Origin: an uncultured virus (IMG/VR IMGVR_UViG_3300007511_001983)
Taxonomy: Duplodnaviria; Heunggongvirae; Uroviricota; Caudoviricetes
Strand: one strand, 5' to 3'
Length of the DNA stretch: 64,000 nucleotides
Virus record (IMG/VR): IMGVR_UViG_3300007511_001983
Location: 1 to 64,000 of that record
The notes under the pieces were generated by a model. It was given only the letters and a program-made list of their open reading frames with translations, did not search any database and was not told where the DNA came from. Positions 4,559 to 39,211 of the stretch are shown here, in pieces. The position numbers and the translations under genes are program-made. The number at the start of each line of letters is the position of its first letter. Position 1 is the stretch's first letter.

Positions 4559-4619
4559 TATTTATAAATAGTTTAGTTATTCGACCCGGCCCGATATACT
4601 TATATTGAGAGGGCAAAAT

Positions 4620-5567: not shown

Positions 5568-5655
5568 AAAGCTTGTTCCGTATGATGGAAAAGTAATTGA
5601 CCTATGTGTTGAAAATTCACACACGTATAACGTTGAAGGAAAAGCAGTTCACAAT
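5548..5655 (+). other. Split intein C-fragment (36 aa) of DnaE
   Basis: Blocks F/G ending HN, followed by Ser+1. Confidence 0.9.
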
Positions 5656-8166
5656 TCAGGCGCCGGCAGTTTAGTCAATTACTTGCTAGGAATCACGCAG
5701 ATTGACCCGATTCCATACGGTCTACTTTGGAGTCGATTCCTCGGCAGACACAGGACATCGTGGCCGGATATCGACTCGGATGCAGGAGATCGAGATGCAC
5801 TCATTGATGCCGCCCGAGAGCTGTTTGGTAATGATGCTGTTATTCCCGTAAGCAACTTTAATACACTCAAGCTAAAGTCAATTGTCAAGGATGTTGCTAA
5901 GTTCTATGATGTTCCTTTTCAAGAGGTAAATATCGTCACAGGACCATTACAAGCTGACGTAGAGCCTCATGCTCGAGATGCTAATACTGAGAAGTCGGTA
6001 TTCGTTTTGACCCACGAGGATTGCATGAAGTATTCAGAGAAATATCTTGCTTTCATGACGAAATATCCGCATGTAGAAGATCATGTGAGCACGTTGTTTA
6101 TGGAGCAAAAATCAATTGGCCGTCATGCAGGCGGTGTTCTTATTGCAGATGCACGTGAGCTTGAGAAGACAATCCCACTAATCTCAGTTCGAGGTGACTT
6201 GCAAACTCCGTGGACTGAGGGAATGAACTTCAGAAACCTCGAAGATAATGGGTTCATTAAGTTTGATTTCCTCGGACTCACACTGATGAAAGATGTGGAA
6301 AATTGTATCCGAAGAATCCTCATTAAAGACGGGCAAAAGAATCCATCGTTTATGGATATCAAGGAATTCTTTGATAAAAACTTGAATTGTCGTACTATTA
6401 AGCAAGATGATCCAAGGGTATGGGAGAATGTATATCACCAAAAGAACTTTGCCCCAGGCATCTTTCAGTTTACTGCGCAAGGAGCTCGAAACTTCTGTAT
6501 GCAAGCTAAGCCTGAAAACATTGAGGAGCTCGGTGCAATCACAGCAATTTATCGACCGGGCCCACTGAAGGCAAATGTTCATATTGATTATGTCGCAGCA
6601 AAGAACGACCGAGACAATATCGTGTATGACCACCCAGTGATTGAGAAGATCCTCGGTGCAACTTGTGGATTCATCACGTTTCAAGAGCAGTTCATGACTT
6701 TGGCAGTGGAACTAGCAGGATTTACGCCCGGCGAATCTGATAAAATGCGTAAGACGCTGGTGAAGAAGTCGCTTGACACAATCGGCAAAAAAGGTTCAGA
6801 ACGTGATGCATTGCGCAAGAAGTTTGTTGAAGGTGCTGAGAGATTACATGATCTAGATCCGAAAATCACACATGCACTCTTCGACAAGATCGAGTTCTTC
6901 AGCCTGTATGGGTTTAATAAATCACATGCTATCTCTTACGCAATTGACAGTTACTACGCAGCATGGCTCTTTACTTATCACCCCAATGAGTGGATTGCAG
7001 CTGTTCTTCAATCTGAAAATGGAAGCCCGAAAAATCTGTCAAAAGCAATCCGCGAGGCAAAGGTTCTTGACTTCAAGTTCGAACAGTCAGACATCAACTA
7101 CTCGGGCATTGAGTGGGAATTTAACTATGAAAAGAACGCATTCATTCCGCCGCTAACCTCCATCAAAGGTTTGGGAAAGACGGCGATGGCAGAACTGATT
7201 AAGCATAGACCCTATGCGTCAGTCAAAGATCTGTTCTTTAATAAGCGCGGTGAATGGCGATTCTCAAAGGCAAATAAGACAACCTTCGGAGCGCTATGTC
7301 AAATTGAGGCATTCTCATCACTTGACGAGCTTGAAAGCGGAGATATTGAAAATCACCGACAGCTTTATCACTTGATTGTGGACAATTACGATAAAATCAA
7401 AAAAGCAAATGATGGAAAACAAAAGTGGTTGGATAAGCTTCCTGTCCTCGCTGAAAAAAATTATGAGGAGGTCAAAAAGATTATCAAGGTATTCGAAAAA
7501 TACAAGAATGAAGACACTGCATTAAAAATGAAGGCAGTTGTTGAAGATTCAAATGTCATGGATTGGAACTATATTGACAATCTTTCATCTGAGCTTAGGG
7601 TATACGAGCACAATCAGCCTCGACGACAGCTGCAAGTCGACAGATGCTTCACCCGCCTAGAAGAGAACACTGTAAAAAGAGATAAAATCTTAGATAGGCT
7701 TGATCAATATTTCGATCTCAAAGAAGCAATCAAGGATTATGAAGATATCGAAGACTGGGCAAGAGATGAAAAGATTCGGCTATATCAAGAGATCACGTCA
7801 GCAATCAATAACGAGCTTGTATTTCCGTCTGAAGTAATGGATAGAATCACGAGGACTGATATGCCGTCAGTATGTGAAATTGAGGGCGGCCAAAAGGCTG
7901 TGGCATGGGGTTGCATCGCCGAGGTTCAAAAGAAGAAGACGAAAAAGGGAAAAGATTTCTATCGTCTCAGAATGATCGATGAGCAAAACCGAAATTGCTG
8001 GCTCAGGGTTTGGGGTAAGTTCTTTGATTGGGGCGAAGAAAGAGGGCAGAAGGTTTATTATGAACCCCCTTCATTCTCTTATTGGTTGATGGAAGTTGAC
8101 GTCGATCCGAATTGGGGAGCATCTACTGCAGCATGGAAAATGAGAAGGATACCTCTTGTTGATTAA
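5548..8166 (+). CDS. dnaE: DNA polymerase III alpha, C-terminal half starting with split-intein IntC
   Basis: VIDLCVENSHTYNVEGKAVHN|SGAGSLV; PDIDSD catalytic motif, GRHAGG, KFDFLGL, IFQF, YRPGP, YGFNKSHA. Confidence 0.93.
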   Translation: MTKLISKKLVPYDGKVIDLCVENSHTYNVEGKAVHNSGAGSLVNYLLGITQIDPIPYGLLWSRFLGRHRTSWPDIDSDAGDRDALIDAARELFGNDAVIPVSNFNTLKLKSIVKDVAKFYDVPFQEVNIVTGPLQADVEPHARDANTEKSVFVLTHEDCMKYSEKYLAFMTKYPHVEDHVSTLFMEQKSIGRHAGGVLIADARELEKTIPLISVRGDLQTPWTEGMNFRNLEDNGFIKFDFLGLTLMKDVENCIRRILIKDGQKNPSFMDIKEFFDKNLNCRTIKQDDPRVWENVYHQKNFAPGIFQFTAQGARNFCMQAKPENIEELGAITAIYRPGPLKANVHIDYVAAKNDRDNIVYDHPVIEKILGATCGFITFQEQFMTLAVELAGFTPGESDKMRKTLVKKSLDTIGKKGSERDALRKKFVEGAERLHDLDPKITHALFDKIEFFSLYGFNKSHAISYAIDSYYAAWLFTYHPNEWIAAVLQSENGSPKNLSKAIREAKVLDFKFEQSDINYSGIEWEFNYEKNAFIPPLTSIKGLGKTAMAELIKHRPYASVKDLFFNKRGEWRFSKANKTTFGALCQIEAFSSLDELESGDIENHRQLYHLIVDNYDKIKKANDGKQKWLDKLPVLAEKNYEEVKKIIKVFEKYKNEDTALKMKAVVEDSNVMDWNYIDNLSSELRVYEHNQPRRQLQVDRCFTRLEENTVKRDKILDRLDQYFDLKEAIKDYEDIEDWARDEKIRLYQEITSAINNELVFPSEVMDRITRTDMPSVCEIEGGQKAVAWGCIAEVQKKKTKKGKDFYRLRMIDEQNRNCWLRVWGKFFDWGEERGQKVYYEPPSFSYWLMEVDVDPNWGASTAAWKMRRIPLVD

Positions 8167-8347: not shown

Positions 8348-9248
8348 GTTTCCGATAAACAAGATCTTCATCGAAGGCCCAGACCTTTCTGGTAAGTCAT
8401 CATTATATAGGTCAATTCATGAGAAATCAAAGTTCAAATGGAACATCGATGACAGATCAACGTTATCAATGTGTGTGTATGCAAACCAGTATGACCGAGA
8501 TGACTTCTATCTCCGCCAGAATCTAAGTTTAGAGCTTTCAAACCTGAACAATCACCTCGTGTTACTACTGCCAGATCTCGGCGTCATTCATGATAGATTT
8601 CTGGATCGCGGCGACGAGTTTCAAGATGCTGATTCATTAGTCGATCTTCACCATAGGTTTGCTAAAGAGTTTGAAAAGGTTTGCATGTTGCCAAACGTTC
8701 ATGCATTCACTTCCGGGACTGCTGAAGAGCAAGCATCAAAAGTCATTGAAAATCTTTGTGAGTGGGAAGCAAGAACACCCAGGCAGATCGGAAAGCTGGT
8801 AAATGAGTTTGCAAAGTTCTCACCCAATCGTGAATGCACCACAATGCAGTTTCACTTCTACGACGACGGGACATTCGAAGGAGTCAATGACAATATTGAG
8901 TTCACGCCCGGCGAAGAAGTATATTACGCCAAAATCCGCGGTAAGCTCATAGGAAAAATTGAGGATGAACTAGCAGGATTAAACTCATATATGCGCAAGG
9001 AAACCAAAACATCCCGAAGGTTCGTATTCGCAGGTGACGACTGCATATCATTTATTCAGGTGCTAGTCAGAGATGGATTAATGGATGTGCACTCAGTATT
9101 CAGGTCGTCAGATACCCAAAGAAAAACTGCAACTGACATTCAGCTCATTCATTACCTAGGCAGAGAGGCCGCCAAAATACTCAGATTGAACACAGATGAC
9201 TATCGATTCCGATTCCGATTTAACATAAACAGTGCACACGTAATATAG
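8340..9248 (+). CDS. dNMP kinase fused to a thymidylate-synthase-fold (dCMP hydroxymethylase-like) domain
   Basis: P-loop IEGPDLSGKSS and DR; C-terminal SRR, DCISFIQ, FRSSD...D, SAHV. Confidence 0.7.
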   Translation: MIKFPINKIFIEGPDLSGKSSLYRSIHEKSKFKWNIDDRSTLSMCVYANQYDRDDFYLRQNLSLELSNLNNHLVLLLPDLGVIHDRFLDRGDEFQDADSLVDLHHRFAKEFEKVCMLPNVHAFTSGTAEEQASKVIENLCEWEARTPRQIGKLVNEFAKFSPNRECTTMQFHFYDDGTFEGVNDNIEFTPGEEVYYAKIRGKLIGKIEDELAGLNSYMRKETKTSRRFVFAGDDCISFIQVLVRDGLMDVHSVFRSSDTQRKTATDIQLIHYLGREAAKILRLNTDDYRFRFRFNINSAHVI

Positions 9249-9260
9249 GTAGAACACACT

Positions 9261-9485
9261 ATGATCAACGGAAAGCATATTAACATTGATGAGCTCAAGT
9301 GGTATAAACTAGAGCGAGGAAGACATAGATCACAGCTTGTCATAAATATAGACAAGATTGTTGAGTGTATTAATAATGATTGCTGGTCAGCTGATCTAAA
9401 AGCAGCACTAGCCCAAGCACAATATGCATATGACTCTGCGTCTTTTACAGAATATAAAATAGAACTATTAGAGGACAAAGATTGA
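9261..9485 (+). CDS. Hypothetical protein
   Basis: In operon; overlaps next start. Confidence 0.5.
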   Translation: MINGKHINIDELKWYKLERGRHRSQLVINIDKIVECINNDCWSADLKAALAQAQYAYDSASFTEYKIELLEDKD

Positions 9486-9901
9486 CACAAAAAACAAAGA
9501 AAAAAATCTGGTCGGATTCATCAATACTCAAATCAATTAAAAACCCAACACCAGACTCATACGAAGTAAAAATCAAAGCTCCCGAAGTTACGTTCATGGG
9601 TGGAAAAAATAAGCCAGATTTTGCGTCTGTGTATTTAATTATGTATCCGCAAGATCATGTAGTTGAACTCAAATCTTTAAAGCTATATTTTTATCAATTC
9701 CGTGAAAAGCTCTTTTCATATGAAAGAATAATTAATGTAATTTATGATGATCTCATGAAAGTATACAAGCCAGAAAGATTAAGAGTAATGATAGATTTTA
9801 ATCCTCGAGGTGGAATATCATCAAGATTGACAATCGACTCAGACTGGAAATCTCGAGGCGGAAAAGATAAGTTTAAAAATTGGAATGAGAGCCCGTGGTA
9901 A
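9482..9901 (+). CDS. queF: QueF-like T-fold protein lacking the catalytic Cys
   Basis: PDFA, VELKSLKLY, PRGGI motifs; no Cys in the protein. Confidence 0.75.
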   Translation: MTQKTKKKIWSDSSILKSIKNPTPDSYEVKIKAPEVTFMGGKNKPDFASVYLIMYPQDHVVELKSLKLYFYQFREKLFSYERIINVIYDDLMKVYKPERLRVMIDFNPRGGISSRLTIDSDWKSRGGKDKFKNWNESPW

Positions 9902-10341
9902 AAAACAAGCTCAAAGTAGGATTCACATGCAGCAGTTTCGACCTATTGCATCCAGGGCACGTTGTAATGCTCAAGGATTGCAAGAATGTATGTGACTATT
10001 TGATTGTCGGGTTACAAACTGATCCAACGATTGACCGCAAGGACAAAAACAAGCCAATCCAGACATTCCGCGAAAGAGAGCTTATGATTCGCTCTATTAA
10101 GTACGTCGATGAGGTTGCCAAGTATGAGACTGAAGCAGAGCTTTATGAGCTAATCAAGGATTTAAATCCAGAAGTCAGAATTTTGGGAACCGACTGGAAA
10201 GACAAAGAGTTTACTGGGCATGATCTTGAAATTCCGATTCACTGGCACAATCGTGATCATGACTGGTCAACATCAGAATTAAGAAGTAGAATTTACCGAG
10301 TAGAGCTAGACAAAATGGAAAGATTAATGGGGCGTCTATGA
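9895..10341 (+). CDS. Glycerol-3-phosphate cytidylyltransferase-like (TagD family)
   Basis: SFDLLHPGH, GTDW, STSELR. Confidence 0.85.
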   Translation: MVKNKLKVGFTCSSFDLLHPGHVVMLKDCKNVCDYLIVGLQTDPTIDRKDKNKPIQTFRERELMIRSIKYVDEVAKYETEAELYELIKDLNPEVRILGTDWKDKEFTGHDLEIPIHWHNRDHDWSTSELRSRIYRVELDKMERLMGRL

Positions 10342-11267
10342 GTAGAAAAGCATTAGTAACAGGCGCAGCAGGATTCATCGGCTCAAACTTGGTTCGAAAG
10401 CTGCTTGAAGAAGGCTGGAGTGTCACGGGTGTCGACGACCTCAGCTCTGGGCATCTTGAGTTAGTTGAGGGTTGTAAGGGCCTCCGACTCATTGTCGATG
10501 ACTTTGCAGGAGCGCAAGCAATAGCTGAGATAGAAAGGGGCGACTACGATGTTGTGTTTCATGTCGCCGCAATCCCACGAGTAAGCTACTCAGTTGAGCA
10601 CCCATCAGAGACAACTCTGACAAATATCGCAAAGACAGTCAAGTTAATGGAAGCATGTCGAGGAACTATTGACAGGTTCGTGTTCTCATCGTCATCGTCA
10701 GTCTACGGCGGCGCCGAGATCATGCCTACACCGACTGATCACCCGCGAGATCCCAAGTCGCCATATGCATGGCACAAGTCGTCAATCGAAGATCTACTTC
10801 GAATGTTCGGCAACCTTCATGATTTTGACTCTGTGTGTCTGAGATACTTTAATGTCTTCGGCCCAAATCAATATGGTGACTCGCCGTATTCAACAGCTAT
10901 ATCTGCTTGGTGTCATGCAATCAAGCACGGAACGCCCCTTCGATCTGACGGAACTGGCGAGCAATCACGTGACATGTGCTATGTTGACAATGTAGTTGAC
11001 ATGAACATTCGGGCTGCAAATCACGCCGAGTCTTTAAGAGGAGAATCATTCAATGTTGCATGCGGAGATCGAACGACAAATAACGAAATCCTCGAGGCAC
11101 TAAAAGAGAGATTCGGAGATCTGGATATCAATCATGCACCACCCCGCCCCGGCGACGTTATGCACACCCAGGCAGATATCTCAGAGACAGAACGAGTATT
11201 TGGATACAAGCCGCTGGTAAAATTTTGGCCCGGGTTCCAGAAAACGCTAGAGTGGTGGGATATTTAA
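10338..11267 (+). CDS. NAD-dependent epimerase/dehydratase (extended SDR)
   Basis: TGAAGFIG, SSSSVYG, YAWHK, LRYFNVFGP. Confidence 0.9.
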   Translation: MSRKALVTGAAGFIGSNLVRKLLEEGWSVTGVDDLSSGHLELVEGCKGLRLIVDDFAGAQAIAEIERGDYDVVFHVAAIPRVSYSVEHPSETTLTNIAKTVKLMEACRGTIDRFVFSSSSSVYGGAEIMPTPTDHPRDPKSPYAWHKSSIEDLLRMFGNLHDFDSVCLRYFNVFGPNQYGDSPYSTAISAWCHAIKHGTPLRSDGTGEQSRDMCYVDNVVDMNIRAANHAESLRGESFNVACGDRTTNNEILEALKERFGDLDINHAPPRPGDVMHTQADISETERVFGYKPLVKFWPGFQKTLEWWDI

Positions 11268-11291
11268 TCATACCGACACGAGGATAATGAT

Positions 11292-11603
11292 ATGAAAATA
11301 ACTCTCGCTGAGCTAAGATGCTTAATTAAAGAAGCAATTGCTGATACAGGCGACTCTTTCGACCCACTTTCATTCCTAAGAAGATCAAGGAAGGTAAACT
11401 ATAAACCCCTACCAGATAGCATGCGACGAGAGTATGATGCAGCCACTACGATATTGAGCACCGCAAGTGATACAATGTCTCTTGAAGAGCTTATTCATTC
11501 ACTTGAAACCGACGAGAACCCCATAGAGAGATCTGCCGCTGATCCTCGGTATGCGCAGATTGAGCTAGCATGGATCGAGCACCAGCATGCACAGAAGGCA
11601 TAG
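11292..11603 (+). CDS. Hypothetical protein with MKIT..LR.LIKE leader
   Basis: MKITLAELRCLIKEAI; ATATTTAA upstream. Confidence 0.6.
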   Translation: MKITLAELRCLIKEAIADTGDSFDPLSFLRRSRKVNYKPLPDSMRREYDAATTILSTASDTMSLEELIHSLETDENPIERSAADPRYAQIELAWIEHQHAQKA

Positions 11604-11612
11604 CAACTTAGA

Positions 11613-12119
11613 TTGGAACTTTCCCTTGGGATAAAGAACAAAAAGATTAGGATCGCGTTCTACAAAGGGCCAATGAACTGGCGAACGTGGATTGTCAAGT
11701 GGCGAACTGGCGGAACATATACTCACTGTGAATTAGTGATGCCGTCAGGCGACTGTATTGGTATTTCACCAGAAGATTCACCGCCAAGAATCAGGATGAA
11801 GCGACAAGAACTACCCGATGATGATTGGGATTTCATCGACATAATGGTCGACAAGATCCAGATCATAAAGATCATTTCGTTTTTCAATAGCACATACGGG
11901 CATAAATACGACTGGTTCGGGATGGTGATGTCATATGCTTCGCCTTGGTTCATCAAACATGAGAGAAAATGGTACTGCAGTCAATGGATTGCGACGCTGC
12001 TCACAGTGTCTGATGTTTATTCATTTAACTATATCAAGATGTCGCCGACAAAACTATATGACATGCTGAGCATGAAAGTCAATAACGGATTAATCGACGG
12101 ATCAGTAGAAGATGCATGA
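11613..12119 (+). CDS. Permuted papain-like NlpC/P60 amidase (YiiX/YaeF-like)
   Basis: THCEL ... KYDW ... WYCSQ (His before Cys). Confidence 0.65.
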   Translation: MELSLGIKNKKIRIAFYKGPMNWRTWIVKWRTGGTYTHCELVMPSGDCIGISPEDSPPRIRMKRQELPDDDWDFIDIMVDKIQIIKIISFFNSTYGHKYDWFGMVMSYASPWFIKHERKWYCSQWIATLLTVSDVYSFNYIKMSPTKLYDMLSMKVNNGLIDGSVEDA

Positions 12120-12198
12120 TCTCTTTTCTAGCGAGTGGTTCAAAATTGCAATGGTTGCATTACTCATCATCGCTCTAAGGGCCTCGGGAAAGCAATAA
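12112..12198 (+). CDS. Possible 28-aa single-TM microprotein
   Basis: MHDLFSSEWFKIAMVALLIIALRASGKQ fills the gap exactly; its stop abuts the next ATG. Confidence 0.4.
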   Translation: MHDLFSSEWFKIAMVALLIIALRASGKQ

Positions 12199-12681
12199 AT
12201 GATATTAAGTTTAATTTTAGCTGCAAATATTTGTAATAGCCCAATAAAATTAAACACTGGGTATATTTCTTCCCATTATGGCCCGAGGCAAATGATTAAG
12301 AACGGCTTAGTGTCACACCACGACGGAGTTGATATTGCAGCAAAAGTTGGGACACCAATCTATTCAATTCAGGCAGGTAAGATAAAGTCAGTTCATATTC
12401 AAGACGATGGAGCAAAGATTGTCGACACTATTTCAGTTGATGATCAAGGTGTTTCCAGGATTATACGATATGCTCACCTAAGCAAATTTTCTGTCACAGA
12501 AGGTCAGCTTATTGAATCGGGTGGATTAATCGGTTATGTGGGAATGACTGGGAATACAACCGGCCCACACGTTCATATTTCAACAGCCCTTTATGTTCAC
12601 AATAAGGGTAAATACATTCATCAAAATCCCGAAAAAGTTTTAAACCTCTGTAAATACAAGGTGAAAATTGAGTATAAATAA
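12199..12681 (+). CDS. M23 family peptidase with signal peptide
   Basis: HDGVD, YAHL, TGPHVH. Confidence 0.88.
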   Translation: MILSLILAANICNSPIKLNTGYISSHYGPRQMIKNGLVSHHDGVDIAAKVGTPIYSIQAGKIKSVHIQDDGAKIVDTISVDDQGVSRIIRYAHLSKFSVTEGQLIESGGLIGYVGMTGNTTGPHVHISTALYVHNKGKYIHQNPEKVLNLCKYKVKIEYK

Positions 12682-12733
12682 AGCAGCTCTGTCAATCACT
12701 AGCAAGGTTTTTAAAAATAAATGAAAAAAAGAG

Positions 12734-12760
12734 GAAACCCTCTCGAAAAATGTCCGATAA
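12734..12760 (+). promoter_or_regulatory. sigma28/FliA-like promoter GAAA-N15-TCCGATAA
   Basis: One mismatch per box to TAAA-N15-GCCGATAA with exact spacing; upstream of the T3SS-like module. Confidence 0.4.
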
Positions 12761-12796
12761 TATAGATAGGAAAACAATTAATGGGAGGTTTTCAAA

Positions 12797-13621
12797 ATGG
12801 TAGTTGGAATTAATTCTCTTGGGACACGCGTTAATAAAGCAATGGATAATCTTGGTTACCCAGATGCAATTGGCGATATTGTCGGAGCCCAAACTGATCT
12901 TGCAACCTTTAACATCTCAGGCGCAGTTCAAAACTGGAAAGATCTATTCTCAGGAATGCCGACTGCAAAGTTTCTAACTAAACCATCTGATGCAATTGCG
13001 CGATCACGACAATTGCATAGTGACACATATGCAGCAGGTTCAGGTGGAACATTGGCTACTGCACTCCAAAAGATGGACGGCGAACTCATGGATCTTATGA
13101 AAGCTGCAGGTTCAAAAGTAGGTTCATTAATGAATCAACAAGGGAGTGGCCAAGCTGACCTTGGCGATCTGGTCGGCCCAAATGCACCAATTGAAGACCG
13201 AATTGCAGCTTTCTTGTTCAAGCAAATGAAGGAAAGCGATAAAGCTCTTGAAGCACAAATGAAGAAATACGAAGCTATCGGTAAATCTACCAAAAAGAAA
13301 TCGGGTGGATTCTTTGGTTCAATCAAATCTGCATTCAAATCAGTTGCATCATCTGCATTTTCAATCGGCGGAGGAGCGCTCGGCGGAATGATCGGCGGTC
13401 CAATCGGAACCAAACTCGGTTCTGCGTTCGGCGGCGGATTATTCGGCGGAATGTTCGGCAAGAAAAAAGCAGCTAGTAGTGACAAGGAACATTCAAAATC
13501 AGTAATGAACTTTAAGATTCAGCAATTGATGAACAAAAGGGCACAATTACATGACTTAATATCTAATGTTTTAAAAACGATGCATTCAATGAGCATGAAT
13601 TGCATTAGAAATATAAAATAA
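12797..13621 (+). CDS. T3SS-associated needle/translocator-like protein with glycine zipper
   Basis: Gly-zipper GGGALGGMIGGPIG; C-terminus QQLMNKRAQLHDLISNVLKTMHSMSMNCIRNIK is paralogous to the 14603 C-terminus. Confidence 0.55.
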   Translation: MVVGINSLGTRVNKAMDNLGYPDAIGDIVGAQTDLATFNISGAVQNWKDLFSGMPTAKFLTKPSDAIARSRQLHSDTYAAGSGGTLATALQKMDGELMDLMKAAGSKVGSLMNQQGSGQADLGDLVGPNAPIEDRIAAFLFKQMKESDKALEAQMKKYEAIGKSTKKKSGGFFGSIKSAFKSVASSAFSIGGGALGGMIGGPIGTKLGSAFGGGLFGGMFGKKKAASSDKEHSKSVMNFKIQQLMNKRAQLHDLISNVLKTMHSMSMNCIRNIK

Positions 13622-13636
13622 TAAATATTTATCAAT

Positions 13637-14599
13637 ATGTTAGTTGAAACATTTTACATAGTTCCGGCAGATGGAAAACAAAAAAACCCAAGAAAGAAGC
13701 TGGTTGCTAAATTTAGTTGTGATATATGCAGTGAAGAATTTCAATCTTCAAATTCAATAAAAAAGAAGATTAAAAGAAATAATCACTTTTGTTCTAAGTT
13801 TTGTTTCGGTGAATCTTTAAGAAATTCTGGTCATTTAAGACGACAGATAGAAGATACAAATTTAAAAAAGTATGGAGTAAAAAATCCTGCGTCACTCAAA
13901 GAAACTAAAGAGAAAATAGAGAACACTAGATTAAAAAAGTATGGTGTAAAGCACTTGATGCAATCGCAGGAATTCTTAGACAAGAGGGTTAAAACATATA
14001 TTAAGAATCTTGGTGTTGATAATCCGTCAAAATCAAAAGAAGTTCAAGATAAGAAGGTTATGACTAGCATAAAGAACCACGGAGCAACTCATCCGCACAT
14101 GAGTAAAAAAATACAAGAAAAATATAAGAAAACATGTAGGGAGAGGTTTGGTGTAGATAACCCGCTATCAAATAACAGGGTAAGAGAAAAATGCAAAGAA
14201 ACGCTTGTGAAAAGATATGGTGTAGAGTTTTCACTACAGTCTGACGAGATAATTGAAAAATTTTATAAAACAAAATTTGGAATATCAAGAAGCGACTACA
14301 TTGCACAACTGCCAGAGTTTGAAAACTACAAAAGAGAAGTAAGTAAGATCACAAACCAACAACCCATTCACTTGCTAGAAAACTCTAATAAAAATAGAGG
14401 TAAAGGTGAAGACGACTACCAGCTTGATCACATGTTTTCAAAGCGGGAAGGTTTTTTACAAGATATAGATTCAGAAATAATTGGAAATATATGCAATCTT
14501 GAATTCATCCCGGCAAGAGAAAATATATCAAAGGGAAAAGATTGCTCGATATCAAAAGAAGAACTAATAAAAAGATTCAACGAATCAGATAAGGAATAA
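13637..14599 (+). mobile_element. Free-standing HNH-type homing endonuclease with KKYGVxNP repeats
   Basis: Repeated (K/R)(Y/F)GV.NP units; YQLDH...NLEFIPARENISKG; AT-rich. Confidence 0.7.
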
Positions 14600-14602
14600 A
14601 AA

Positions 14603-15091
14603 ATGACCGGTATCAATAGATTAAACAGTGGAAATTCAATTCGAGTTAATTCGGCACCGCTTCATACCCGACAAACTGCAAGAAATGATTTTGGGTCACA
14701 GATAGGCCGCGGAGTTGCTAACGGTGCAAATGCTGTAGCTGGCGCTGTTGCAGTTGCTGCACCATTCGTCCCAGGCGGAGCGGTTGTAAGTGCTACCGTA
14801 AATCAAGCAGCAGGCGCCATCGGCAATTACGCCCCAGGTGGAACAATGAATACTCCGGGCCAGATGCCGGGACCAAATACCCAAATTGGTGCTGGTCAAG
14901 CCGGAACCTCAAGCACACAATCACTGATGGATCAAACTAAGCAAATGCAGGAGATGCAGATGTCGTTCAATCTACAATATCTAAATCTTCAAAATAAGAT
15001 GCAAAATGAGAATCGTCAATATAGTACTATCTCAAATGTCCTTAAAGCAAAGTCAGATACTGCTAAGAACGCAATAAATAATATACGCTAA
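14603..15091 (+). CDS. T3SS needle-subunit-like (SctF-like, myxobacterial type)
   Basis: C-terminus QYLNLQNKMQNENRQYSTISNVLKAKSDTAKNAINNIR resembles needle-protein C-helices. Confidence 0.65.
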   Translation: MTGINRLNSGNSIRVNSAPLHTRQTARNDFGSQIGRGVANGANAVAGAVAVAAPFVPGGAVVSATVNQAAGAIGNYAPGGTMNTPGQMPGPNTQIGAGQAGTSSTQSLMDQTKQMQEMQMSFNLQYLNLQNKMQNENRQYSTISNVLKAKSDTAKNAINNIR

Positions 15092-15093
15092 AA

Positions 15094-15501
15094 ATGGATA
15101 TCCCTGGTCTTAATATACAGATACCTGCAGTTAATCCTCAAGTATCACCACAGAATATATCTAAGAGTTTCCAGGATGTCCTTAGTGAAGGTTCGTCTTC
15201 TTCTACAATAGGTAATATATCTTCCACCCAAAAGATGACAGAAGTCACACCTACACCAAAACTCCGAGTAGACAAAACAGAAAATACAAACTTCAATAAA
15301 ATATTCTCAGGTTTGATATCTGGGCAAGGGAAACTCGACAAAATAATCAAGCTTGCAACCTCAGGAAAGTCATTCAGTCCTACCGAACTACTTGCAATTC
15401 AAGCAGGAGTTTATAAATTCAGTCAGGAACTTGAATTAACTTCAAAGGTGGTCGAAAAAGCAACTGATGGTGTTAAACAGACTTTACAGACTCAGGTATA
15501 A
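15094..15501 (+). CDS. T3SS inner-rod-like protein (SctI; YscI/HrpB2 family)
   Basis: SPTELLAIQAGVYKFSQELELTSKVVEKATDGVKQTLQTQV. Confidence 0.72.
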   Translation: MDIPGLNIQIPAVNPQVSPQNISKSFQDVLSEGSSSSTIGNISSTQKMTEVTPTPKLRVDKTENTNFNKIFSGLISGQGKLDKIIKLATSGKSFSPTELLAIQAGVYKFSQELELTSKVVEKATDGVKQTLQTQV

Positions 15502-15520
15502 ATCTTTCCTCGCATAGGGT

Positions 15521-15528
15521 ATATTTAT
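15521..15528 (+). promoter_or_regulatory. ATATTTAT putative late-promoter motif (representative copy)
   Basis: Also at 1767, 4558, 13625, 16682, 18833, 23452, 27685, 62833; variants at 4596, 11260, 36823, 38073. Confidence 0.55.
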
Positions 15529-15546
15529 TAATACCTTCCTCGGAGT

Positions 15547-15999
15547 GTGTATATGCAAATCAAGTTAAATGAATTACGTCAAATAATTCGAGAAGAACTA
15601 AGCAGAATCAATGAATCATCTGAACATGATCACGAAACGATTTGGGATAAAGCTGACGAAATGTTAAAGTCAGAACTATCTCCTGACGAGATAAGTCAGT
15701 TTATGGGTCTTGCTGCACTTTACGATGAAGGAAAAACATATACAGAAATTCAAGGTTGGCTTCGGTTTAGGCCTCAAATAAAGAGGCTTTTAATTTCAGC
15801 TGCTTTAGGAAACAAACCTAAATCAGTTAAAAAACATTTAAACCGTTTGTCAAAATATTTAGATGAGTATTTAAAAGTATCAAATCAATCTATTGACGAC
15901 CTTCAAGATGACGGCTGGGATTCTTTCGTTGGAATATCTGAAGAAATTATGTCTAATCCAATGAGTGCATCATTTTTAAAAAGGCGATGGAAGTCGTAA
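15547..15999 (+). CDS. Hypothetical protein with LRQIIREEL leader
   Basis: IKLNELRQIIREELSRINES. Confidence 0.6.
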   Translation: MYMQIKLNELRQIIREELSRINESSEHDHETIWDKADEMLKSELSPDEISQFMGLAALYDEGKTYTEIQGWLRFRPQIKRLLISAALGNKPKSVKKHLNRLSKYLDEYLKVSNQSIDDLQDDGWDSFVGISEEIMSNPMSASFLKRRWKS

Positions 16000-16005
16000 G
16001 ATACG

Positions 16006-16680
16006 ATGCCTAATATGAAACTAATAATGGAAAACTGGCGTGGGTTCCTAAAAGAATCCAAACACGACGTCAAAGTTCGTCACTTATCATTCGAAATGAT
16101 GCAATATATCAAATCAGGTGAAACAGAAGATCCATTCATAACTGACATAACAATCAAAAACCACAATCTAATCGATCCTGACGACGAGTTTGATGACCCT
16201 GAAACCTGGGACGACGTTGAGGTCACACTTGATGTCCTCCGAGATCCAGAGTGGGGAATTCCGTTCACATTAAACGGAGGAGCTTCAGGCGATGCTATCG
16301 AACTAAACTTGACAATAAATCCAGAATACGAACCAAACATCTGGTCAGATATCAATATCGAACTCCACGATGCCATCCGACACGAAATAGAGCATATAAC
16401 CCAGGATAGAAATCCAAGTAAAGGGCTAAAAGATTCACATCAGGAAAGCACACTTCCATATGCAGAATATCTTTTACTCCCACACGAAATACCGGCCTTC
16501 GTTAACGGCTTCAATGCCAGAAGGAAAAAAATGAAATCTACTTTAACTCAAGCTATAGATGATTTCTTGGTCAAGCATAGGGCAATGTTCACAAACGGCA
16601 AAGAAGACAAAGAAATAAAAAGAGTTAGACAGGTATGGCTCGACTGGGCAAAAGAAAACTTGCCTAACACACCAATGTAA
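16006..16680 (+). CDS. Zincin-like HExxH protein with MKLIMENWR leader
   Basis: RHEIEHITQ and HEIPAF. Confidence 0.55.
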   Translation: MPNMKLIMENWRGFLKESKHDVKVRHLSFEMMQYIKSGETEDPFITDITIKNHNLIDPDDEFDDPETWDDVEVTLDVLRDPEWGIPFTLNGGASGDAIELNLTINPEYEPNIWSDINIELHDAIRHEIEHITQDRNPSKGLKDSHQESTLPYAEYLLLPHEIPAFVNGFNARRKKMKSTLTQAIDDFLVKHRAMFTNGKEDKEIKRVRQVWLDWAKENLPNTPM

Positions 16681-16712
16681 GATATTTATTAAATGACTTC
16701 CGGGATTTTATT

Positions 16713-17918
16713 ATGACACTAAATGAAAATGACTTGCGATTGCTAATTAGATCTATTCTGCAAGAGCAAGAAGAGCCTGAAGAAGAAGAAGCGCTCGAAG
16801 TAGAGAAAGAAGATTTGACGCCGTTCGAGATGTCAACAGTTGCAAAAAACAAAGCAGCTATTTTCATACAAGTGCTGAAGTCATTAGGGCTCCCGGTCAG
16901 AGACAAACATGTTAAAGCAAGTATAAAATCTGGAGGCGAAATTCGGGTAGCAATAGATCAGGATGTTACAGAGCCCAAAACTGAAAAAGAGCTCCTGACT
17001 TTCGTCGAACTAGCATTCCAAAAAATACTAGGTAGAGATGTCGAAGTCGAAGTTCTCTCTCCGAATGAGGGAAGAAATACTAGCGGAACATATGCAGGAT
17101 ACAGTGTTGAAGGGCAACCACTAATTTCATTTGGGAATTCTGGATTTGGAAAATCGCAACGGGCCGGAGGGTTCGAATATGAAACAAGAATGGCAGAATT
17201 CCTTAAGGATGAAAACATAGACTTTAAAGCTGACGACAACATGAAGACGTCAGACATAGAGATAAACGGAATTATGATCGAACTCAAAAAACAAGATGCC
17301 GATGGTGGTTCACCAGCTCTTGTGTATGACTTCAACAAATCAGAATTTTATCCGAAGCGTAGCTCAAGTGCAAATAATTACCTTGTAGATATGATCAACT
17401 CAACATTTGACAAAGAAGAGACAAAGCGAAAACTTGATATCATCAAAAACAAAATCAACCTCGACGCTGCTACGCTCCAGTCAGTCACTATGGAGCAGTT
17501 TGAAACAATAGTTCAGCCTTTTCTAGAAAAAGAGGCAAATCAAAATGTATCTAATTCAAAAATTACCTCTGAAGACATAGCGATGTACTATAGAGAAAAA
17601 GGGGCTAAGTTTATTCAAATACGGGGCAAGGGATTATATCATATAGATGAAAAAAATGCTGCAACCCTAGGTGACGGAAGGAAGACATCGCTGTTTACTT
17701 TCCCGGACGACGTCGGTGCAGCAGTTACTTTTAGAAACTATCACGGTGCTCGCGCCCTCCGCCCAAGAATAAAGGGAAGTGCATTCAAGAAGCCGGAAAA
17801 CTCTCCCGTTAGCCTCGACAATCCTGAAGATCGTAAGCTTTTTGCAGCCTGGGCTGAGAAACAAAACCTCAACGAATCTACACAAAATCGCTGGGAACTT
17901 TTAGCGGGAATTAAGTAA
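16713..17918 (+). CDS. PD-(D/E)xK nuclease-like protein with leader and RWxLLAGI tail
   Basis: GFEYE...SDIEI...IELKK. Confidence 0.45.
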   Translation: MTLNENDLRLLIRSILQEQEEPEEEEALEVEKEDLTPFEMSTVAKNKAAIFIQVLKSLGLPVRDKHVKASIKSGGEIRVAIDQDVTEPKTEKELLTFVELAFQKILGRDVEVEVLSPNEGRNTSGTYAGYSVEGQPLISFGNSGFGKSQRAGGFEYETRMAEFLKDENIDFKADDNMKTSDIEINGIMIELKKQDADGGSPALVYDFNKSEFYPKRSSSANNYLVDMINSTFDKEETKRKLDIIKNKINLDAATLQSVTMEQFETIVQPFLEKEANQNVSNSKITSEDIAMYYREKGAKFIQIRGKGLYHIDEKNAATLGDGRKTSLFTFPDDVGAAVTFRNYHGARALRPRIKGSAFKKPENSPVSLDNPEDRKLFAAWAEKQNLNESTQNRWELLAGIK

Positions 17919-17968
17919 TAAATTTAAAAGACATGTGTTATAATCTTTCATAACGTATAGGAGAAAGC

Positions 17969-18811
17969 GTGAAAATCCAAGAGACTCTTGCCTACGAAGA
18001 TGTTCTACTCGTCCCCCAATACTCAGACATTAAATCCCGATCAGAATGTGACACATCAGTCACTCTCGGCTCCGGAGTCAATCTCAAGCTACCCATTATT
18101 GCATCATGCATGGACACGGTGACTGAAGCTGAGATGGCTGCAGCAATCGGTCTTATGGGTGGCCTCGGCGTCATCCACCGGTATAATTCGCCAGAGGAAC
18201 AAGCACAGCAAGTAATAAAAGCAATACAATTATCAGAGCATGAGGCACCTATTGCCGCAGCGATTGGAGTAACAGATGACTATTTTCACCGAGCAGACCT
18301 TCTTGTTAATGCTGGAGCCTCTGCTCTTTGCATTGATGTGGCACATGGTCACCACATTCTCGTAAAAGAGGTGCTAGAGGAGCTTCGTGCTACTCTGGGT
18401 GAGGATTTTTGCTTGATTGCAGGTAATGTTGCCACCCTCGAGGGAATTAACGACCTCGCTGATTGGGGGGCTAACGCAGTACGCTGCAACATCGGCGGAG
18501 GCTGCTTTGTTCCGGGTACAAAAGTTCGAACTGAAAACGGTTTAAAGAATATTGAAAATGTTAAAGTCGGTGATAGAGTCTATACACATACAGGAAATCT
18601 AAAGCCAGTTATTGATACATTAGCTTTTGATAGAAGTGAAGCAATAACTGTGATTAACGATATTGAATGTACATCAAATCATGAATTTTATGTCGTAAAC
18701 AGAGAAGATGTCGAACTTATCAATGAAAACAATATTCACGAGTATGCAAAGTGGATCGCAGCATATGATCTAGACGAACAGCAACATCTTTTAATAAAAA
18801 CATTGGAATAG
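17969..18811 (+). CDS. guaB: IMP dehydrogenase/GMP reductase N-half (no CBS) ending in split-intein IntN
   Basis: YEDVLLVP, SCMDTVT, GLGVIHR, DVAHGH, AGNV, NIGGG|CFVPGT. Confidence 0.9.
   Translation: MKIQETLAYEDVLLVPQYSDIKSRSECDTSVTLGSGVNLKLPIIASCMDTVTEAEMAAAIGLMGGLGVIHRYNSPEEQAQQVIKAIQLSEHEAPIAAAIGVTDDYFHRADLLVNAGASALCIDVAHGHHILVKEVLEELRATLGEDFCLIAGNVATLEGINDLADWGANAVRCNIGGGCFVPGTKVRTENGLKNIENVKVGDRVYTHTGNLKPVIDTLAFDRSEAITVINDIECTSNHEFYVVNREDVELINENNIHEYAKWIAAYDLDEQQHLLIKTLE
18503..18808 (+). other. Split intein N-fragment (102 aa), IMPDH-1-like
   Basis: CFVPGT...CTSNHEFYV; closely resembles the IMPDH-1 IntN as recalled. Confidence 0.9.
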
Positions 18812-18861
18812 GATCAAAATGTATCTACTTGTATATTTATATACATAGGGAGCCATATTCA

Positions 18862-19872
18862 ATGTGTAGTAAAGAAAAATATTGTAGAGAGTGCGGAGAA
18901 TCAATATCGAGCAAAAAAACATTTTGCGATTCGATTTGCTATGAGAAAAATAGAAAAGTTGATGATATAAAAAAGTGCAATTATTGCAAAGAAGACTTTG
19001 CTTGCCAGGGTTCTAGTCGGCTATACTGCTCTAAAGAATGCAGAACTAAAGGGACGAGAGTTAAAAATGGATATAAGAAAAAGCTCTGTCAAGAATGCAA
19101 AGAAGAAATATTGGGCCGCGGCACCAAATACTGTTCAAACAAATGCAAAGGGCTAGCAAAGGCTGGCAAGAATAACTCATTTTATGGCAAGAAGCACTCT
19201 AAAGAAACCAGGGAGAAGATAAGAAATGCTCTATCAGGAAAGCTATCCGGAGACAAAAATCCATTTTACGGCAAAATACACTCGGATGCTACAAAACAGA
19301 AGATAATTGATGGAAACAAAAAATTTAGAGAAGAAAATAAAGTCTTAGTTCTTGAAAGAACACTGCGACGTCTAGGTTTGACTGAAAGCAAGCTGGAGGG
19401 CCTGTGGCACACGTATTCGACCACACTCGAGTTTAACCAGAGTGATCTTAAAAGACTCGCGGGCAACATAGACATAAGATCGATTAAAAAATATTTGTTC
19501 TTTTTTAATATAGTTGATGAAGATGAATTTGAAAAAACTGTGCATAAGAAAAAGATGGGTCGAGCCGGATCTTCCCCTGAGCGACGATTATATGAAATGT
19601 TATGTGCTAAGTTTGGCAGGAGAAACATAAGTAGGCAATTTAAGATAGAGAGAAAGTTTTATGATTTTATAGTTTTTGGAAAATATTTGATAGAATATGA
19701 TGGTTATTACTGGCATAATAATTCAAAATCAAGAGACGATATTAAGGATGACATTGCAAAAAGAAGTGGATATCCTTTGTATCGAGTAAAAGAGCCAAAA
19801 AATAGAAGCGTTGATTTTATTGATGAAATAGAAAAAATTGAAGGGTTTATAAATGAAGTTCGAATTAGTTGA
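18862..19872 (+). mobile_element. Free-standing Vsr-like homing endonuclease with Cys-rich zinc repeats and NUMOD3 motifs
   Basis: CxxC/YCS repeats; FYGKKHSKETREKI; SSPE...YDF...IEYDGYYWH. Confidence 0.8.
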
Positions 19873-20464
19873 GTTTAAGAAGAGAATGAAGCACTATGAG
19901 GGAAAAGTTCATGACTTAACAGTTGAGGATGATCACTCGTATAATGTTGACGGCATTGTAGTGCACAATTCAATCTGCTCAACTCGCATCCAGACCGGCC
20001 ATGGCGTCCCAGGCCTGCAAACAATCTTTGACTGCTATCATACAGATCGAAACGTAGCAATCATTGCCGATGGCGGCATTAAAAACTCCGGAGATATCGT
20101 AAAAGCTATTGCTGCAGGCGCTGACGCTGTAATGCTAGGTTCACTTCTCGCAGGGACCGACGAAGCTCCCGGAGATATTGTCTACGTCGACGGCGAGAAG
20201 AGAAAGACGTATAGGGGTATGGCCAGCCCCGAAGCACAGTTCAATTGGCGAGGAAGAGCAAGTAGTCTTGAGGGGATTTCAACCACAGTGGCACATAAAG
20301 GCTCAGTGAGGGACATAGTTAGTAACCTAACACAAGGTTTGCGGAGTGGAATGTCATATTCAGGTGCTCGAACAATTACAGAGCTGCAACGACGTTCACA
20401 GTTTATCCGACAAACATCATCGGGAGCAAACGAAAGTGGAACACATATTCTCAATAATCACTAG
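19853..20464 (+). CDS. guaB: IMP dehydrogenase/GMP reductase C-half starting with split-intein IntC (39 aa, 19853-19969)
   Basis: [50 protein letters not shown]. Confidence 0.92.
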
Positions 20465-36830: not shown

Positions 36831-36834
36831 TAAT

Positions 36835-37173
36835 ATGGCAAGCTCAAAAAGTATATTAAGTGAACAAAAGTTTGATCGAGAGAGGTCAGATCTAATTCGC
36901 CCAATTGAGGCGCATTACCTCCTCGCGTATCCAAAAGGTGAGTTGCTTAATAATATTCTCACACGTGTACGAGTCCTCTCTGGCGTTGCGACAGTATACC
37001 AGCGTGATACAATTAAAAAGAAGACCGGAAGAAACTACGTTCCAATTGAAATTGGATTTGTAATGCCACCAGGCTACGGCGGCCGAGAAAAGTTTGAATC
37101 TGATTTAATAGAGTCTATTCGAAAGATAAAAGGAATCGGCTCTCTTTCGAAGATAAGAAAACAAACAAAATAA
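36835..37173 (+). CDS. Hypothetical protein
   Basis: ORF; ATATTTAA upstream. Confidence 0.5.
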   Translation: MASSKSILSEQKFDRERSDLIRPIEAHYLLAYPKGELLNNILTRVRVLSGVATVYQRDTIKKKTGRNYVPIEIGFVMPPGYGGREKFESDLIESIRKIKGIGSLSKIRKQTK

Positions 37174-37202
37174 GTGTAAACTCTAAAGCCGTGTGATAGA
37201 AT
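37174..37202 (+). promoter_or_regulatory. sigma70-like promoter GTGTAA-17-TAGAAT
   Basis: Recurring motif with TGn extension. Confidence 0.6.
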
Positions 37203-37218
37203 CTTGTCAGGAGATAAG

Positions 37219-38040: not shown

Positions 38041-38092
38041 ACATTTAACAAAGCACAGAGTAAATAATGTCTATACTTAAACTACAAGGAAG

Positions 38093-38356: not shown

Positions 38357-38370
38357 GACGGAGTATTACA

Positions 38371-39174: not shown

Positions 39175-39211
39175 CGTTTACTTGATTAGCATTTGAATGT
39201 AAGATTTCAAC

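Follow-up and report, generated by a model that had tools for sequence, protein, structure and literature searches.

Why would a phage encode proteins that end like the needle and inner-rod subunits of type III secretion systems (T3SS)? The question arises from an IMG/VR virus record (73.5 kb, ~15% complete), a fragment from an uncultured marine jumbo phage; its first 64,000 nucleotides, the whole stretch of DNA that was analysed, are called the window here. A first-pass annotation made from the letters alone had described three co-oriented genes with such tails, and the list of open reading frames (ORFs) contains all three on the + strand: gene A (12797..13621; 274 aa, ending in LISNVLKTMHSMSMNCIRNIK), gene B (14603..15091; 162 aa, ending in TISNVLKAKSDTAKNAINNIR) and gene C (15094..15501; 135 aa, with the tail SPTELLAIQ...KQTLQTQV), which starts 3 nt past the stop of B. 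No direct match of A, B or C reached a family cut-off. Their identification is built on profile links of a transitive kind, on profile alignments exact in register and on the genomic context, and the last of these is the strongest evidence for a T3SS reading.

Sequence relationships of A, B and C

Gene B has a conserved N-terminal domain that contains the AAPFVPGGAVVSA motif, together with a linker rich in Gly and Ser and, at the C-terminus, a needle-like helix. Judged from its sequence, it is most likely an SctF-type needle protein with an N-terminal extension. Alignment by hhalign to YscF/MxiH/EprI/EscF (P 2.3e-4, probability 44%) placed residues 127-162 of B on residues 52-87 of YscF with their ends aligned, and the C-terminal helix of A was likewise in register with the needle C-terminus; no significant likeness of B to SctI was found (P 0.76). 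The B HMM matched Myxococcota ORFs positive for the needle family PF09392 (E 2e-9 to 6e-5, Z=1e6; for L048, L049 and L050, E 2e-9 to 2e-5), and after a second iteration EscF, MxiH and EprI were the next-best matches among 4120 ORFs. Of 21 members of the B family, 0 matched PF09392 itself, with E allowed up to 1; a scan with it gave matches in 45 of 201 Myxococcota genomes (4 above the cut-off) and in 0 of 14 control genomes. The same family marks some look-alike clusters (PF09392 share 11-17%), and a NolX cluster (0.80) and an HrpA cluster (0.82) were also seen; all lie below 0.9 and are leads only.

The homologs of B (n=190) include those at five marine Myxococcota MAG loci (L002-L006), to which it is 63-64% identical. 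In a tree of the family, three phage sequences formed a clade (support 97/97) within an unresolved polytomy alongside cell clades; the tree resolves neither the donor clade nor the number of transfers. At two nearly invariant family positions B of the window has KAKSD in place of KTKHD, which the other phage B proteins retain.

Gene C is most likely an inner-rod protein of the SctI type, as far as sequence comparison can tell. It falls short of the curated cut-offs of the SctI families, scoring 17.5 bits against PF17001 (E 0.006; cut-off 32.4), where the matched part is its last 50 residues, and 15.2 bits against NF038054 (E 0.017; cut-off 39). All 13 of the 13 C-family members examined matched PF17001, each of them under the cut-off (best E 0.0025), and with a canonical SctI HMM the C-family ORFs ranked directly below the canonical ones among 4120 ORFs. 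By hhalign, C resembled YscI/MxiI/EprJ (P 1.3e-3, probability 18%) and showed no significant likeness to SctF (P 0.23). Thus B aligned with SctF and not SctI, and C with SctI and not SctF, and the profile likeness of C to rod proteins appears weak but specific when set against needle proteins. Residues 61-135 of C are 80% identical to Myxococcota proteins and its last 60 residues are nearly invariant between phage and cell; the Q-rich N-terminal ~30 residues of the host protein are missing from the phage form.

Gene A has a domain conserved at the N-terminus, a stretch rich in Lys, a hydrophobic segment and, at the C-terminus, a helix like that of SctF. The glycine zipper that had been noted in it is present as a Gly-rich run at about residues 170-222, and the C-terminal helix that it was said to share with B is borne out by BLASTP (E 8e-5) and by hhalign of the two families, in which the final 35 columns aligned with P 6e-7 (probability 92%). 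Against canonical SctF, residues 232-273 of A aligned to residues 45-86 of YscF, C-terminus on C-terminus (P 0.0034, probability 10%). Homologs of A (n=29) include forms of 352-371 aa that are 52-61% identical over 70-72% of A. On these alignments A is a phage form shortened from a ~367-aa Myxococcota protein, with ~95 internal residues missing relative to the longer forms. It also weakly matches the tape-measure family phrog_167 (E 3e-4). A is thus a larger protein in which a glycine-zipper membrane segment is joined to a C-terminal helix of the needle type found in B, and it may be a tip or translocator-like cap.

The proposal that these tails follow SctF and SctI patterns therefore holds in part: the tails indicate SctI for C and SctF for B and A, but none reaches a family cut-off and B is twice as long as a needle subunit. 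SctF is a small helix-turn-helix hairpin of ~70-90 aa, with needle subunits of 73-87 aa, against 162 aa for B and 274 aa for A. AF2 models built from family alignments had a mean pLDDT of 50.9 for B, with a single long helix at 104-161 and no hairpin, and of 48.9 for C; these models were too poor for comparing folds. Sequence searches of the PDB with B, C and their family profiles (E up to 10) returned unrelated matches and no needle or rod chain, and with the C profile the top PDB match, at E 0.048, fell in a low-complexity stretch and belonged to an ejection protein from a phage.

Homologs beside T3SS genes in Myxococcota

The resemblance to myxobacterial versions, which the first-pass annotation had suggested, was confirmed by homolog searches: the close cellular relatives of all three genes are almost all from Myxococcota. 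Of the 27 genome loci retrieved with C, 16 bear Myxococcota or Myxococcales in their titles and 6 bear Deltaproteobacteria. Among 201 sampled Myxococcota genomes the B family occurred in 160 and the C family in 155 (159 and 154 of 200 when the unpublished G196 is left out). It is from these gene donors only that we assign a host, and they suggest that the phage infects Myxococcota.

Furthermore, the cellular genes lie close to T3SS genes. Five complete 10-Mb Myxococcota chromosomes each have two B/C loci and two sctV genes, and the distance between a locus and an sctV gene is 6-18 kb throughout (5 of 5 chromosomes; 10 of 10 loci), and in one genome (G146) a single strand carries B, C, a 3.2-kb gap, sctR, sctS, sctU and sctV in that order. 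In three genomes (G001, G002 and G003) a second SctU gene, which is non-flagellar, has a cellular A homolog at a distance of 1-2 kb. Adjacency to a T3SS cluster is therefore seen for the host homologs of C and not for the phage genes, which have no T3SS core gene beside them. Another genome (G005) has B and C, no flagellin and one export set only.

In the operon of marine MAGs, a 79-aa gene, B, a TPR gene (138 aa), a 128-aa gene, a sigma gene and C follow one another and parallel yscE-F-G-H-I in order and size (YscE 66, YscF 87 and YscG 115 aa); the 10 kb around it contain none of the T3SS core genes. The 79-aa protein matched YscE by BLASTP at E 0.007, which is thin support, and had no relative in the PDB. 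The TPR protein was not significantly similar to YscG (P 0.25); among PDB sequences it matched only TPRs of generic or designed kind, YscY reaching E 0.86. The 79-aa and TPR genes are absent at the phage loci.

The cassette in phage genomes

Outside the window, A, B and C are contiguous in three other phage lineages (L068/L069, L070 and L071) with differing flanks, so that the cassette is present in 4 distinct viral sequences. One relative (G202; 235.7 kb, 70% complete) has a terminase gene (56.6 bits). Going by CheckV, the closed genome of the phage in the window would measure about 0.3-0.5 Mb. The cassette has a GC content of 0.38-0.45 compared with 0.60 for host genes, its proteins are 50-80% identical to those of Myxococcota, and contigs from a second study span its junctions at 99% or more (two studies in all). 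Close cellular homologs, phage-like composition and occurrence in several phage genomes are what is expected of host-derived auxiliary genes. The genes of the record all lie on one strand, include inteins and homing endonucleases, and also encode ClpB, GroEL, FtsH and PPDK. The phage DnaE is only ~30% identical to known phage DnaE.

The first-pass annotation had reported the window to be free of T3SS core genes, and our searches agree: a Pfam scan of the 70 window ORFs matched none, and a six-frame search for SctV (PF00771) and SctU (PF01312) was negative in 5 of 5 viral records. Because these records are fragments, 15-70% complete, absence of an export apparatus from the phages is not proven.

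Between A and B lies a fourth co-oriented ORF that the first-pass annotation did not mention (13637..14599, +; GC 0.32). It encodes a DUF7487/homing-endonuclease-like protein (PF24308, E 1.2e-27; phrog_3339, E 3e-20; phrog_12131, 'homing endonuclease'), and no such gene separates A from B in L068/L069, L070 or L071; it is an insertion and stands outside the cassette proper. Upstream of A, the reported M23 peptidase gene was recovered (12199..12681, +; PF01551, E 7.9e-20), whereas the NlpC/P60 call for 11613-12119 did not hold, since that ORF has no such Pfam match and matches phrog_1128 only. Nor is the adjacency of the M23 gene to the cassette kept in related phages: in L068 it lies 7 kb away, and in L070 and L071 the 8.6 kb upstream contained no such gene. 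The M23 gene is probably a neighbour and not a member of the cassette.

A sigma-28-like motif, GAAA-N15-TCCGATAA, is located 37 nt upstream of A (12734..12760, +) and is a lead only. It is the sole + strand match to [TG]AAA-N14-16-[GT]CCGATAA in the 73.5-kb record, and a similar GAAA-N15-ACCGGTAA precedes A in L068 and L070; host loci totalling 910 kb gave 0 matches to the strict motif. A host 'GCCGATAA' before C was considered as such a motif and proved instead to be where the sigma gene has its stop codon. When 11200-16200 was scanned for promoters and terminators, promoter-like sites were fewer than in shuffled sequence.

Possible roles during infection

The data show the homology links, that the cassette came from hosts, that it is conserved among phages and that its host homologs are linked to T3SS genes; export, joint assembly and the direction of any effect are inferred. 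On balance we lean, by a little, towards A-B-C being a rod/needle-like cassette from Myxococcota whose products would be exported via the host T3SS and built into it. During infection A, B and C would be produced from phage DNA, the host T3SS would recognise and export them, and their conserved C-terminal helices would let them polymerise on the rod and needle of the host or together with these. Since neither an export gate nor an ATPase, a chaperone or a sigma factor of that system is among the identified genes of the phage, the three proteins would act only via a host T3SS basal body. That a phage has copies of genes which myxobacteria keep next to their T3SS, and which look like parts of its needle and rod, suggests interference with this machine, or a supply of parts to it, in infection.

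Three readings would do without such a role. A/B/C and their Myxococcota relatives might be a lineage-specific helical family with another role and its own sigma factor, with a likeness to SctF and SctI that is convergent or too weak to mean anything. The direct family scores, which are all under their cut-offs, the lack of needle or rod chains among the PDB sequence matches, the poor AF2 models (pLDDT 51 and 49) and the marine MAG operon with no core gene within 10 kb speak for it, but we judge it improbable, given that 10 of 10 B/C loci are no further than 18 kb from sctV, one of the host loci being in line with sctR-S-U-V, that A homologs adjoin a non-flagellar sctU, that related ORFs exceed the PF09392 cut-off, and that the hhalign alignments are exact in register and tell needle from rod. 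That the proteins serve the phage's own ends, as virion or ejection proteins forming a trans-envelope conduit or filament independently of a host T3SS, seems to us very improbable. The weak phrog_167 match of A, the M23 gene upstream and the low-complexity match of the C profile to an ejection protein (E 0.048) fit this idea, as does the glycine-zipper membrane segment of A, which we take to resemble those of ejection proteins. However, the flanks of the cassette are non-structural and vary between phages, the M23 adjacency is not conserved, the C helix is nearly identical to that of the host and so indicates a host partner, and needle and rod proteins require an export gate for assembly. Finally, it is hardly credible that the segment is host DNA, whether through the assembly of a chimera, as the flank of a provirus or by mis-binning of a contig from a bacterium. 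An identical 56.8-kb contig is classed 'provirus' by IMG/VR, and the record has many cell-like genes (ClpB, GroEL, FtsH, PPDK); yet its GC content is well away from that of the host, its proteins share just 50-80% identity with host proteins, its genes have the single-strand layout with inteins and homing endonucleases, and 4 distinct viral sequences share the cassette, one of them carrying a terminase gene. A chimera in particular, of which the first-pass annotation had warned, is excluded by the phage-like GC, these 4 sequences and the contigs of two studies that span the junctions.

If the cassette does act on the host T3SS, the direction of its effect matters. Dominant-negative or capping forms of A, B and C would poison or plug the machine, which could mask a receptor against superinfection, halt costly predation or seal the envelope. 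We regard such sabotage as unlikely. Phage C without its Q-rich N-terminal ~30 residues, phage A without ~95 internal residues and the KAKSD of B in the window are what one might see in defective subunits; the chaperone, sigma factor and export genes are all absent from the phage; and the polymerisation helices are kept, as a poison subunit requires. Against this, one subunit would be enough for jamming, yet all three genes stay together in 4 phage sequences; KTKHD is intact in the other phage B proteins; and the near-invariant C-terminal 60 residues of C fit full function equally. We favour resupply or retooling of the T3SS over pure jamming, and tentatively propose, at rather less than even confidence, that the phage keeps a prey-lysing machine assembled and working while host expression fails, possibly giving it phage-specific properties. 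ClpB, GroEL, FtsH and PPDK on the phage fit such a host-maintenance strategy. The shortened phage forms of C and A could equally be decoys.

A bolder version of resupply, which we hold to be doubtful, is that jumbo phages of marine Myxococcota carry a full exported axial set (rod, needle and membrane-active cap) and build a phage-specified needle on the host basal body; the myxobacterial T3SS would then not be needleless, its rod and needle being the B/C family encoded in or near T3SS clusters. If true, a predation weapon would become a phage-controlled organelle, with the infected predator kept feeding or phage products exported, and this would be a new route for virus takeover of a bacterial nanomachine. 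In addition, A-B-C offers a genetic handle on the hosts of uncultured marine jumbo phages.

Relation to known secretion systems and phage cargo

B and A resemble SctF needle proteins (YscF, MxiH, EprI and EscF; PF09392) in their last 35-42 residues, which align end to end, and B further resembles them in preceding an SctI-like gene and, in hosts, in lying within a T3SS cluster. They are unlike SctF in their conserved N-terminal extension and Gly-rich linker, to which A adds a membrane-like segment, and in being phage-borne. C is similar to the SctI rod proteins (YscI, MxiI and EprJ) in size (135 aa against 97-127), in the common tail xPxELLxxQ...K...V..L and in its position behind a needle-like gene. 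In contrast to them, it scores about half the curated cut-offs, its family is confined to Myxococcota and their phages, and the host copy often sits behind a sigma-factor gene. FliE, the flagellar counterpart at the base of the rod, was faintly matched by 2 of 13 C-family members (E 0.084), and some hosts are flagellated. We rejected a flagellar reading of C, since the family is carried by a genome without flagellin (G005) and by 155 of 201 Myxococcota genomes; in G001 the flagellar cluster is on a separate contig from the B/C genes.

Published descriptions present the Myxococcus xanthus T3SS* and the basal 'Myxo' NF-T3SS (Abby & Rocha 2012) as lacking SctF, secretin and translocon (PMC3459982, PMC12075869), and give the needleless T3SS* a role in prey lysis (PMC12075869). 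Host homologs of B and C adjoin the sctV and sctRSU genes of this Myxococcota system; unlike the needleless scheme, the B/C family suggests rod and needle candidates that were overlooked. These host relatives are testable candidates for the missing parts and bear on how a needleless T3SS would deliver its cargo.

We found no earlier report of structural, self-assembling parts of a secretion machine on a phage, unlike T3SS effectors and host metabolic genes. No phage-encoded needle or rod protein was reported in the literature searched, and tblastn found no B homolog in 50,697 deposited phage records. Phages carry T3SS effectors, such as morons of the SopE type, and to our knowledge the known T3SS cargo of phages consists of effectors and never of structural subunits of the machine. 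The A-B-C cassette is nevertheless like these morons and other phage auxiliary genes in being host-derived, kept by the phage and presumably expressed to change the physiology of the host.

Organization of the cassette

The cassette comprises three plus-strand open reading frames (ORFs): gene A (12797-13621; 274 aa), gene B (14603-15091; 162 aa) and gene C (15094-15501; 135 aa), with 3 nt from the stop of B to the start of C. The first-pass annotation had described three co-oriented genes here, with distinctive C-terminal tails and a glycine zipper in A; the ORF listing shows that this observation is real, down to the coordinates, tails and zipper. The C-terminal part common to A and B was recovered by BLASTP (E 8e-5) and, between the two families, by hhalign (probability 92%, P 6e-7, last 35 columns). 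A profile search also recovered the proposed upstream M23 peptidase; the ‘NlpC/P60’ label for 11613-12119 was left unconfirmed, as phrog_1128 was the sole match and no such Pfam match was found. Profile matches placed a DUF7487/homing-endonuclease gene (13637-14599), previously unmentioned, between A and B.

B of the window carries KAKSD where the family, other phage copies included, has a nearly invariant KTKHD. A sigma-28-like motif, GAAA-N15-TCCGATAA, lies at 12734-12760, ending 37 nt upstream of A, and is the single match of its kind in the whole 73.5-kb record. Two other phages (loci L068 and L070) have a similar, conserved motif upstream of A, and no counterpart was found in the host loci searched.

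The cassette is carried by several phages

The window makes up bases 1-64000 of a 73.5-kb IMG/VR virus record, estimated by CheckV to be ~15% complete, and all sizeable ORFs of the window lie on the same strand. DnaE (Pol III alpha) is intein-split: a first piece (2993-4558) holds the PHP domain, an intein splicing domain and the first part of the NTPase domain, followed by a 320-aa ORF (4605-5567) and the rest of DnaE (5548-8166). An IMPDH/GMP-reductase-like gene is similarly divided into an N-terminal part with a Hint domain (17969-18811), a NUMOD3 homing-endonuclease ORF (18829-19872) and a C-terminal part (19853-20464), and looks like an intein with an endonuclease. A short IMPDH_C stretch cross-matches the beginning of DnaE_C (58% over 31 aa), perhaps from related intein ends. 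The window also encodes one tRNA, a weak tubulin/FtsZ-like ORF (26222-27244; PF00091 under cut-off) and, at 34212-49575, a series of maintenance genes resembling those of cells: ClpB (34212-36830), GroEL (39630-41225), a PPDK/PEP-synthase-like gene (45257-47746) and FtsH (47743-49575).

Scanning viral contigs, we found the cassette at five loci representing four distinct sequences, one locus being identical to the window and two identical to one another. In the three non-window lineages A, B and C follow one another with no endonuclease gene between them, and the flanks differ. The window and its cassette-bearing relatives have FtsH, a trypsin-like peptidase, a PilX_N protein and a methyltransferase in common; one relative of 235.7 kb is 70% complete and has a terminase large-subunit match above cut-off. 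The PilX_N-domain (minor-pilin-like) gene (window 51007-51606; L070:2799-3287; L068:12899-13327) lies near FtsH in all three and, in the window and L070, also adjoins the peptidase and methyltransferase. It gives this phage a second gene reminiscent of a surface apparatus; the presumed hosts deploy Tad or type IV pili alongside a secretion system of type III (T3SS).

A host-chromosome chimera, which the first-pass annotation had named as a risk to its reading, and host contamination are both excluded. Cassette GC is 0.42, 0.45 and 0.375, as against 0.60 in host homologs and 0.416 in the window, and identity to host proteins is 50-80%. Furthermore, 9000-19000 is covered at ≥99% by independent Logan contigs (two studies of marine or seawater metagenomes), which cross the borders between A, the endonuclease gene, B, C and their neighbours. 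A 56.8-kb contig identical to the window is labelled ‘provirus’ in IMG/VR and the window's own record ‘linear’; we read the former label as an effect of abundant cell-like genes, and the stretch examined showed no host flank of high GC.

SctV and SctU were found in none of the five viral records, the 70%-complete one included. Within the reach of these fragments, the earlier statement of a phage lacking injectisome genes stands. Homologs of the host 79-aa, TPR, 128-aa, sigma and SctU genes, described below, were likewise found neither in the 73.5-kb record nor in the 20-kb viral loci.

Relatives of A, B and C in Myxococcota

At E ≤0.01 we retrieved 338 relatives of C, 190 of B and 29 of A. The C alignment recovered 27 loci from species-representative genomes, of which 16 were titled Myxococcota/Myxococcales, six Deltaproteobacteria and five otherwise, bearing out the myxobacterial affinity proposed at first pass. 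Among the five, two Chitinophagaceae match the last 19-20 residues only and Solibacter the last 37. In the two Chitinophagaceae MAGs, very large ORFs (L027:6986-10360 and L028:8159-10279) have last ~20 residues resembling the C-termini of B and C.

Across residues 61-135, phage C and the MAG proteins share 80% identity; for phage B, identity to five proteins from marine MAGs is 63-64% over the full length. Relatives of A include forms of 352-371 aa, with cellular copies in four of five host genomes searched; phage A is shorter than these by ~95 internal residues. The B/C family is nearly pan-Myxococcota, B being found in 160 and C in 155 of 201 sampled genomes (E ≤1e-5; 159 and 154 of 200 leaving out one unpublished genome, G196). 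In the B tree, three phage sequences form one clade (97/97) within an unresolved polytomy with cellular clades, which points to no particular donor or direction.

Evidence on the proposed rod and needle identity

Host genomic context is the best evidence for T3SS identity. In the marine MAGs the operon runs from a 79-aa gene through B, a TPR gene (138 aa), a gene of 128 aa and a sigma-70-family gene to C, which parallels yscE-F-G-H-I in order and size; sequence support is thin for the 79-aa protein as YscE (E 0.007) and the TPR protein as YscG (P 0.25), and none of the T3SS core genes was found less than 10 kb from this operon. Four host genomes (G001-G004) have two FliP/SctR and FlhB/SctU sets each, one inside a full flagellar cluster; a fifth (G005) has one set and no flagellin, yet B and C are present. 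G001, G002 and G003 each have an A homolog at 1-2 kb from their non-flagellar SctU.

In G001, the marine MAG with the closest B/C homologs, the flagellar cluster (L034/L035; G001:C76:47000-86999) is complete, with MotAB, FliLMOPQR, FlhBAFG, FliA, FlgFGAHIJMNKL, FliW, several flagellins, FliD and FliS; the second SctR/SctU set is dispersed.

Five complete chromosomes of 9.7-10.1 Mb (G146, G150, G194, G161, G140) carry two B and two C genes apiece, one set as an operon of B, TPR, sigma and C, the other as an adjacent B-C pair in the phage-like arrangement. In each of the five, both loci lie near the two sctV genes, at ~6 kb and 16-18 kb; these chromosomes may be close relatives, and the two paralogous loci per genome give more independent observations. 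In G146 (C1:9555989-9564906) a single strand carries B, C, a 3.2-kb gap, sctR, sctS, sctU and sctV.

Direct tests fell short of curated thresholds. C matched the SctI families PF17001 (E 0.006, 17.5 bits; cut-off 32.4) and NF038054 (E 0.017), and PF17001 matched 13 of 13 C-family members, each under cut-off. B had no family match, and the SctF family PF09392 was found in none of 21 B-family members. Sequence and profile searches of the PDB returned no needle or rod chain, and the AF2 models were poor (pLDDT 51 for B, 49 for C).

Profile comparison used a canonical set of YscE, F, G, H and I, MxiH and MxiI, EprI and EprJ, and EscF, from three named records. By hhalign, B matched SctF (P 2.3e-4, probability 44%, B 127-162 on YscF 52-87) rather than SctI (P 0.76), and C matched SctI (P 1.3e-3, probability 18%) rather than SctF (P 0.23); these matches are cross-specific and in exact C-terminal register. 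A gave P 3.4e-3 against SctF. A transitive link between PF09392 and B is stronger. PF09392 matched at E ≤0.01 in 45 of 201 Myxococcota genomes (four above cut-off) and in 0 of 14 control genomes, and the B-family HMM matches four PF09392-positive ORFs of 144-149 aa (E 1.8e-9 to 6.4e-5, Z = 1e6). A second-iteration B HMM reaches cellular A homologs (8e-5) and, among 4120 ORFs, ranks EscF, MxiH and EprI next below the Myxococcota superfamily. The canonical SctF HMM reaches the 144-149-aa subfamily and not B proper, and with the canonical SctI HMM the C-family ORFs rank straight after canonical rods. The proposed SctF/SctI identity stands on context, transitive and profile evidence and draws no support from curated thresholds or structure; on the former basis, there is good support for A-B-C being divergent proteins of SctI/SctF type and myxobacterial origin.

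Proposed function and comparison with known systems

Rod and needle proteins assemble only once exported through the T3SS gate. Because this phage carries exported parts only, its proteins would have to act via the host's basal body. Phage and cellular C hardly differ over the C-terminal 60 residues, which argues for contact with a host partner. The phage proteins may resupply or retool the host T3SS, and we consider this more likely than plain jamming, since four phage sequences have kept the trio together and host-maintenance genes are among those the phage carries. The phage proteins might instead serve as decoys, a reading kept alive by the truncated N-terminus of phage C and the internal residues that phage A lacks. 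If the machine is indeed resupplied or retooled, a T3SS kept running could feed a long infection; a passage in PMC12075869 reports that the Myxococcus T3SS is required in prey lysis.

Literature searches on phages with SctF/SctI and phage-encoded needle proteins listed no paper describing a phage-borne needle or rod, and no B homolog was found in deposited phages. Passages in Abby & Rocha 2012 (PMC3459982) and Herrou et al. 2025 (PMC12075869) describe a myxobacterial system without SctF, secretin or translocon. Since B and C are so widespread in Myxococcota, and lie near each sctV in five chromosomes and in one case immediately upstream of sctR-S-U-V, rod and needle candidates may have been overlooked in the myxobacterial T3SS published as ‘needleless’.
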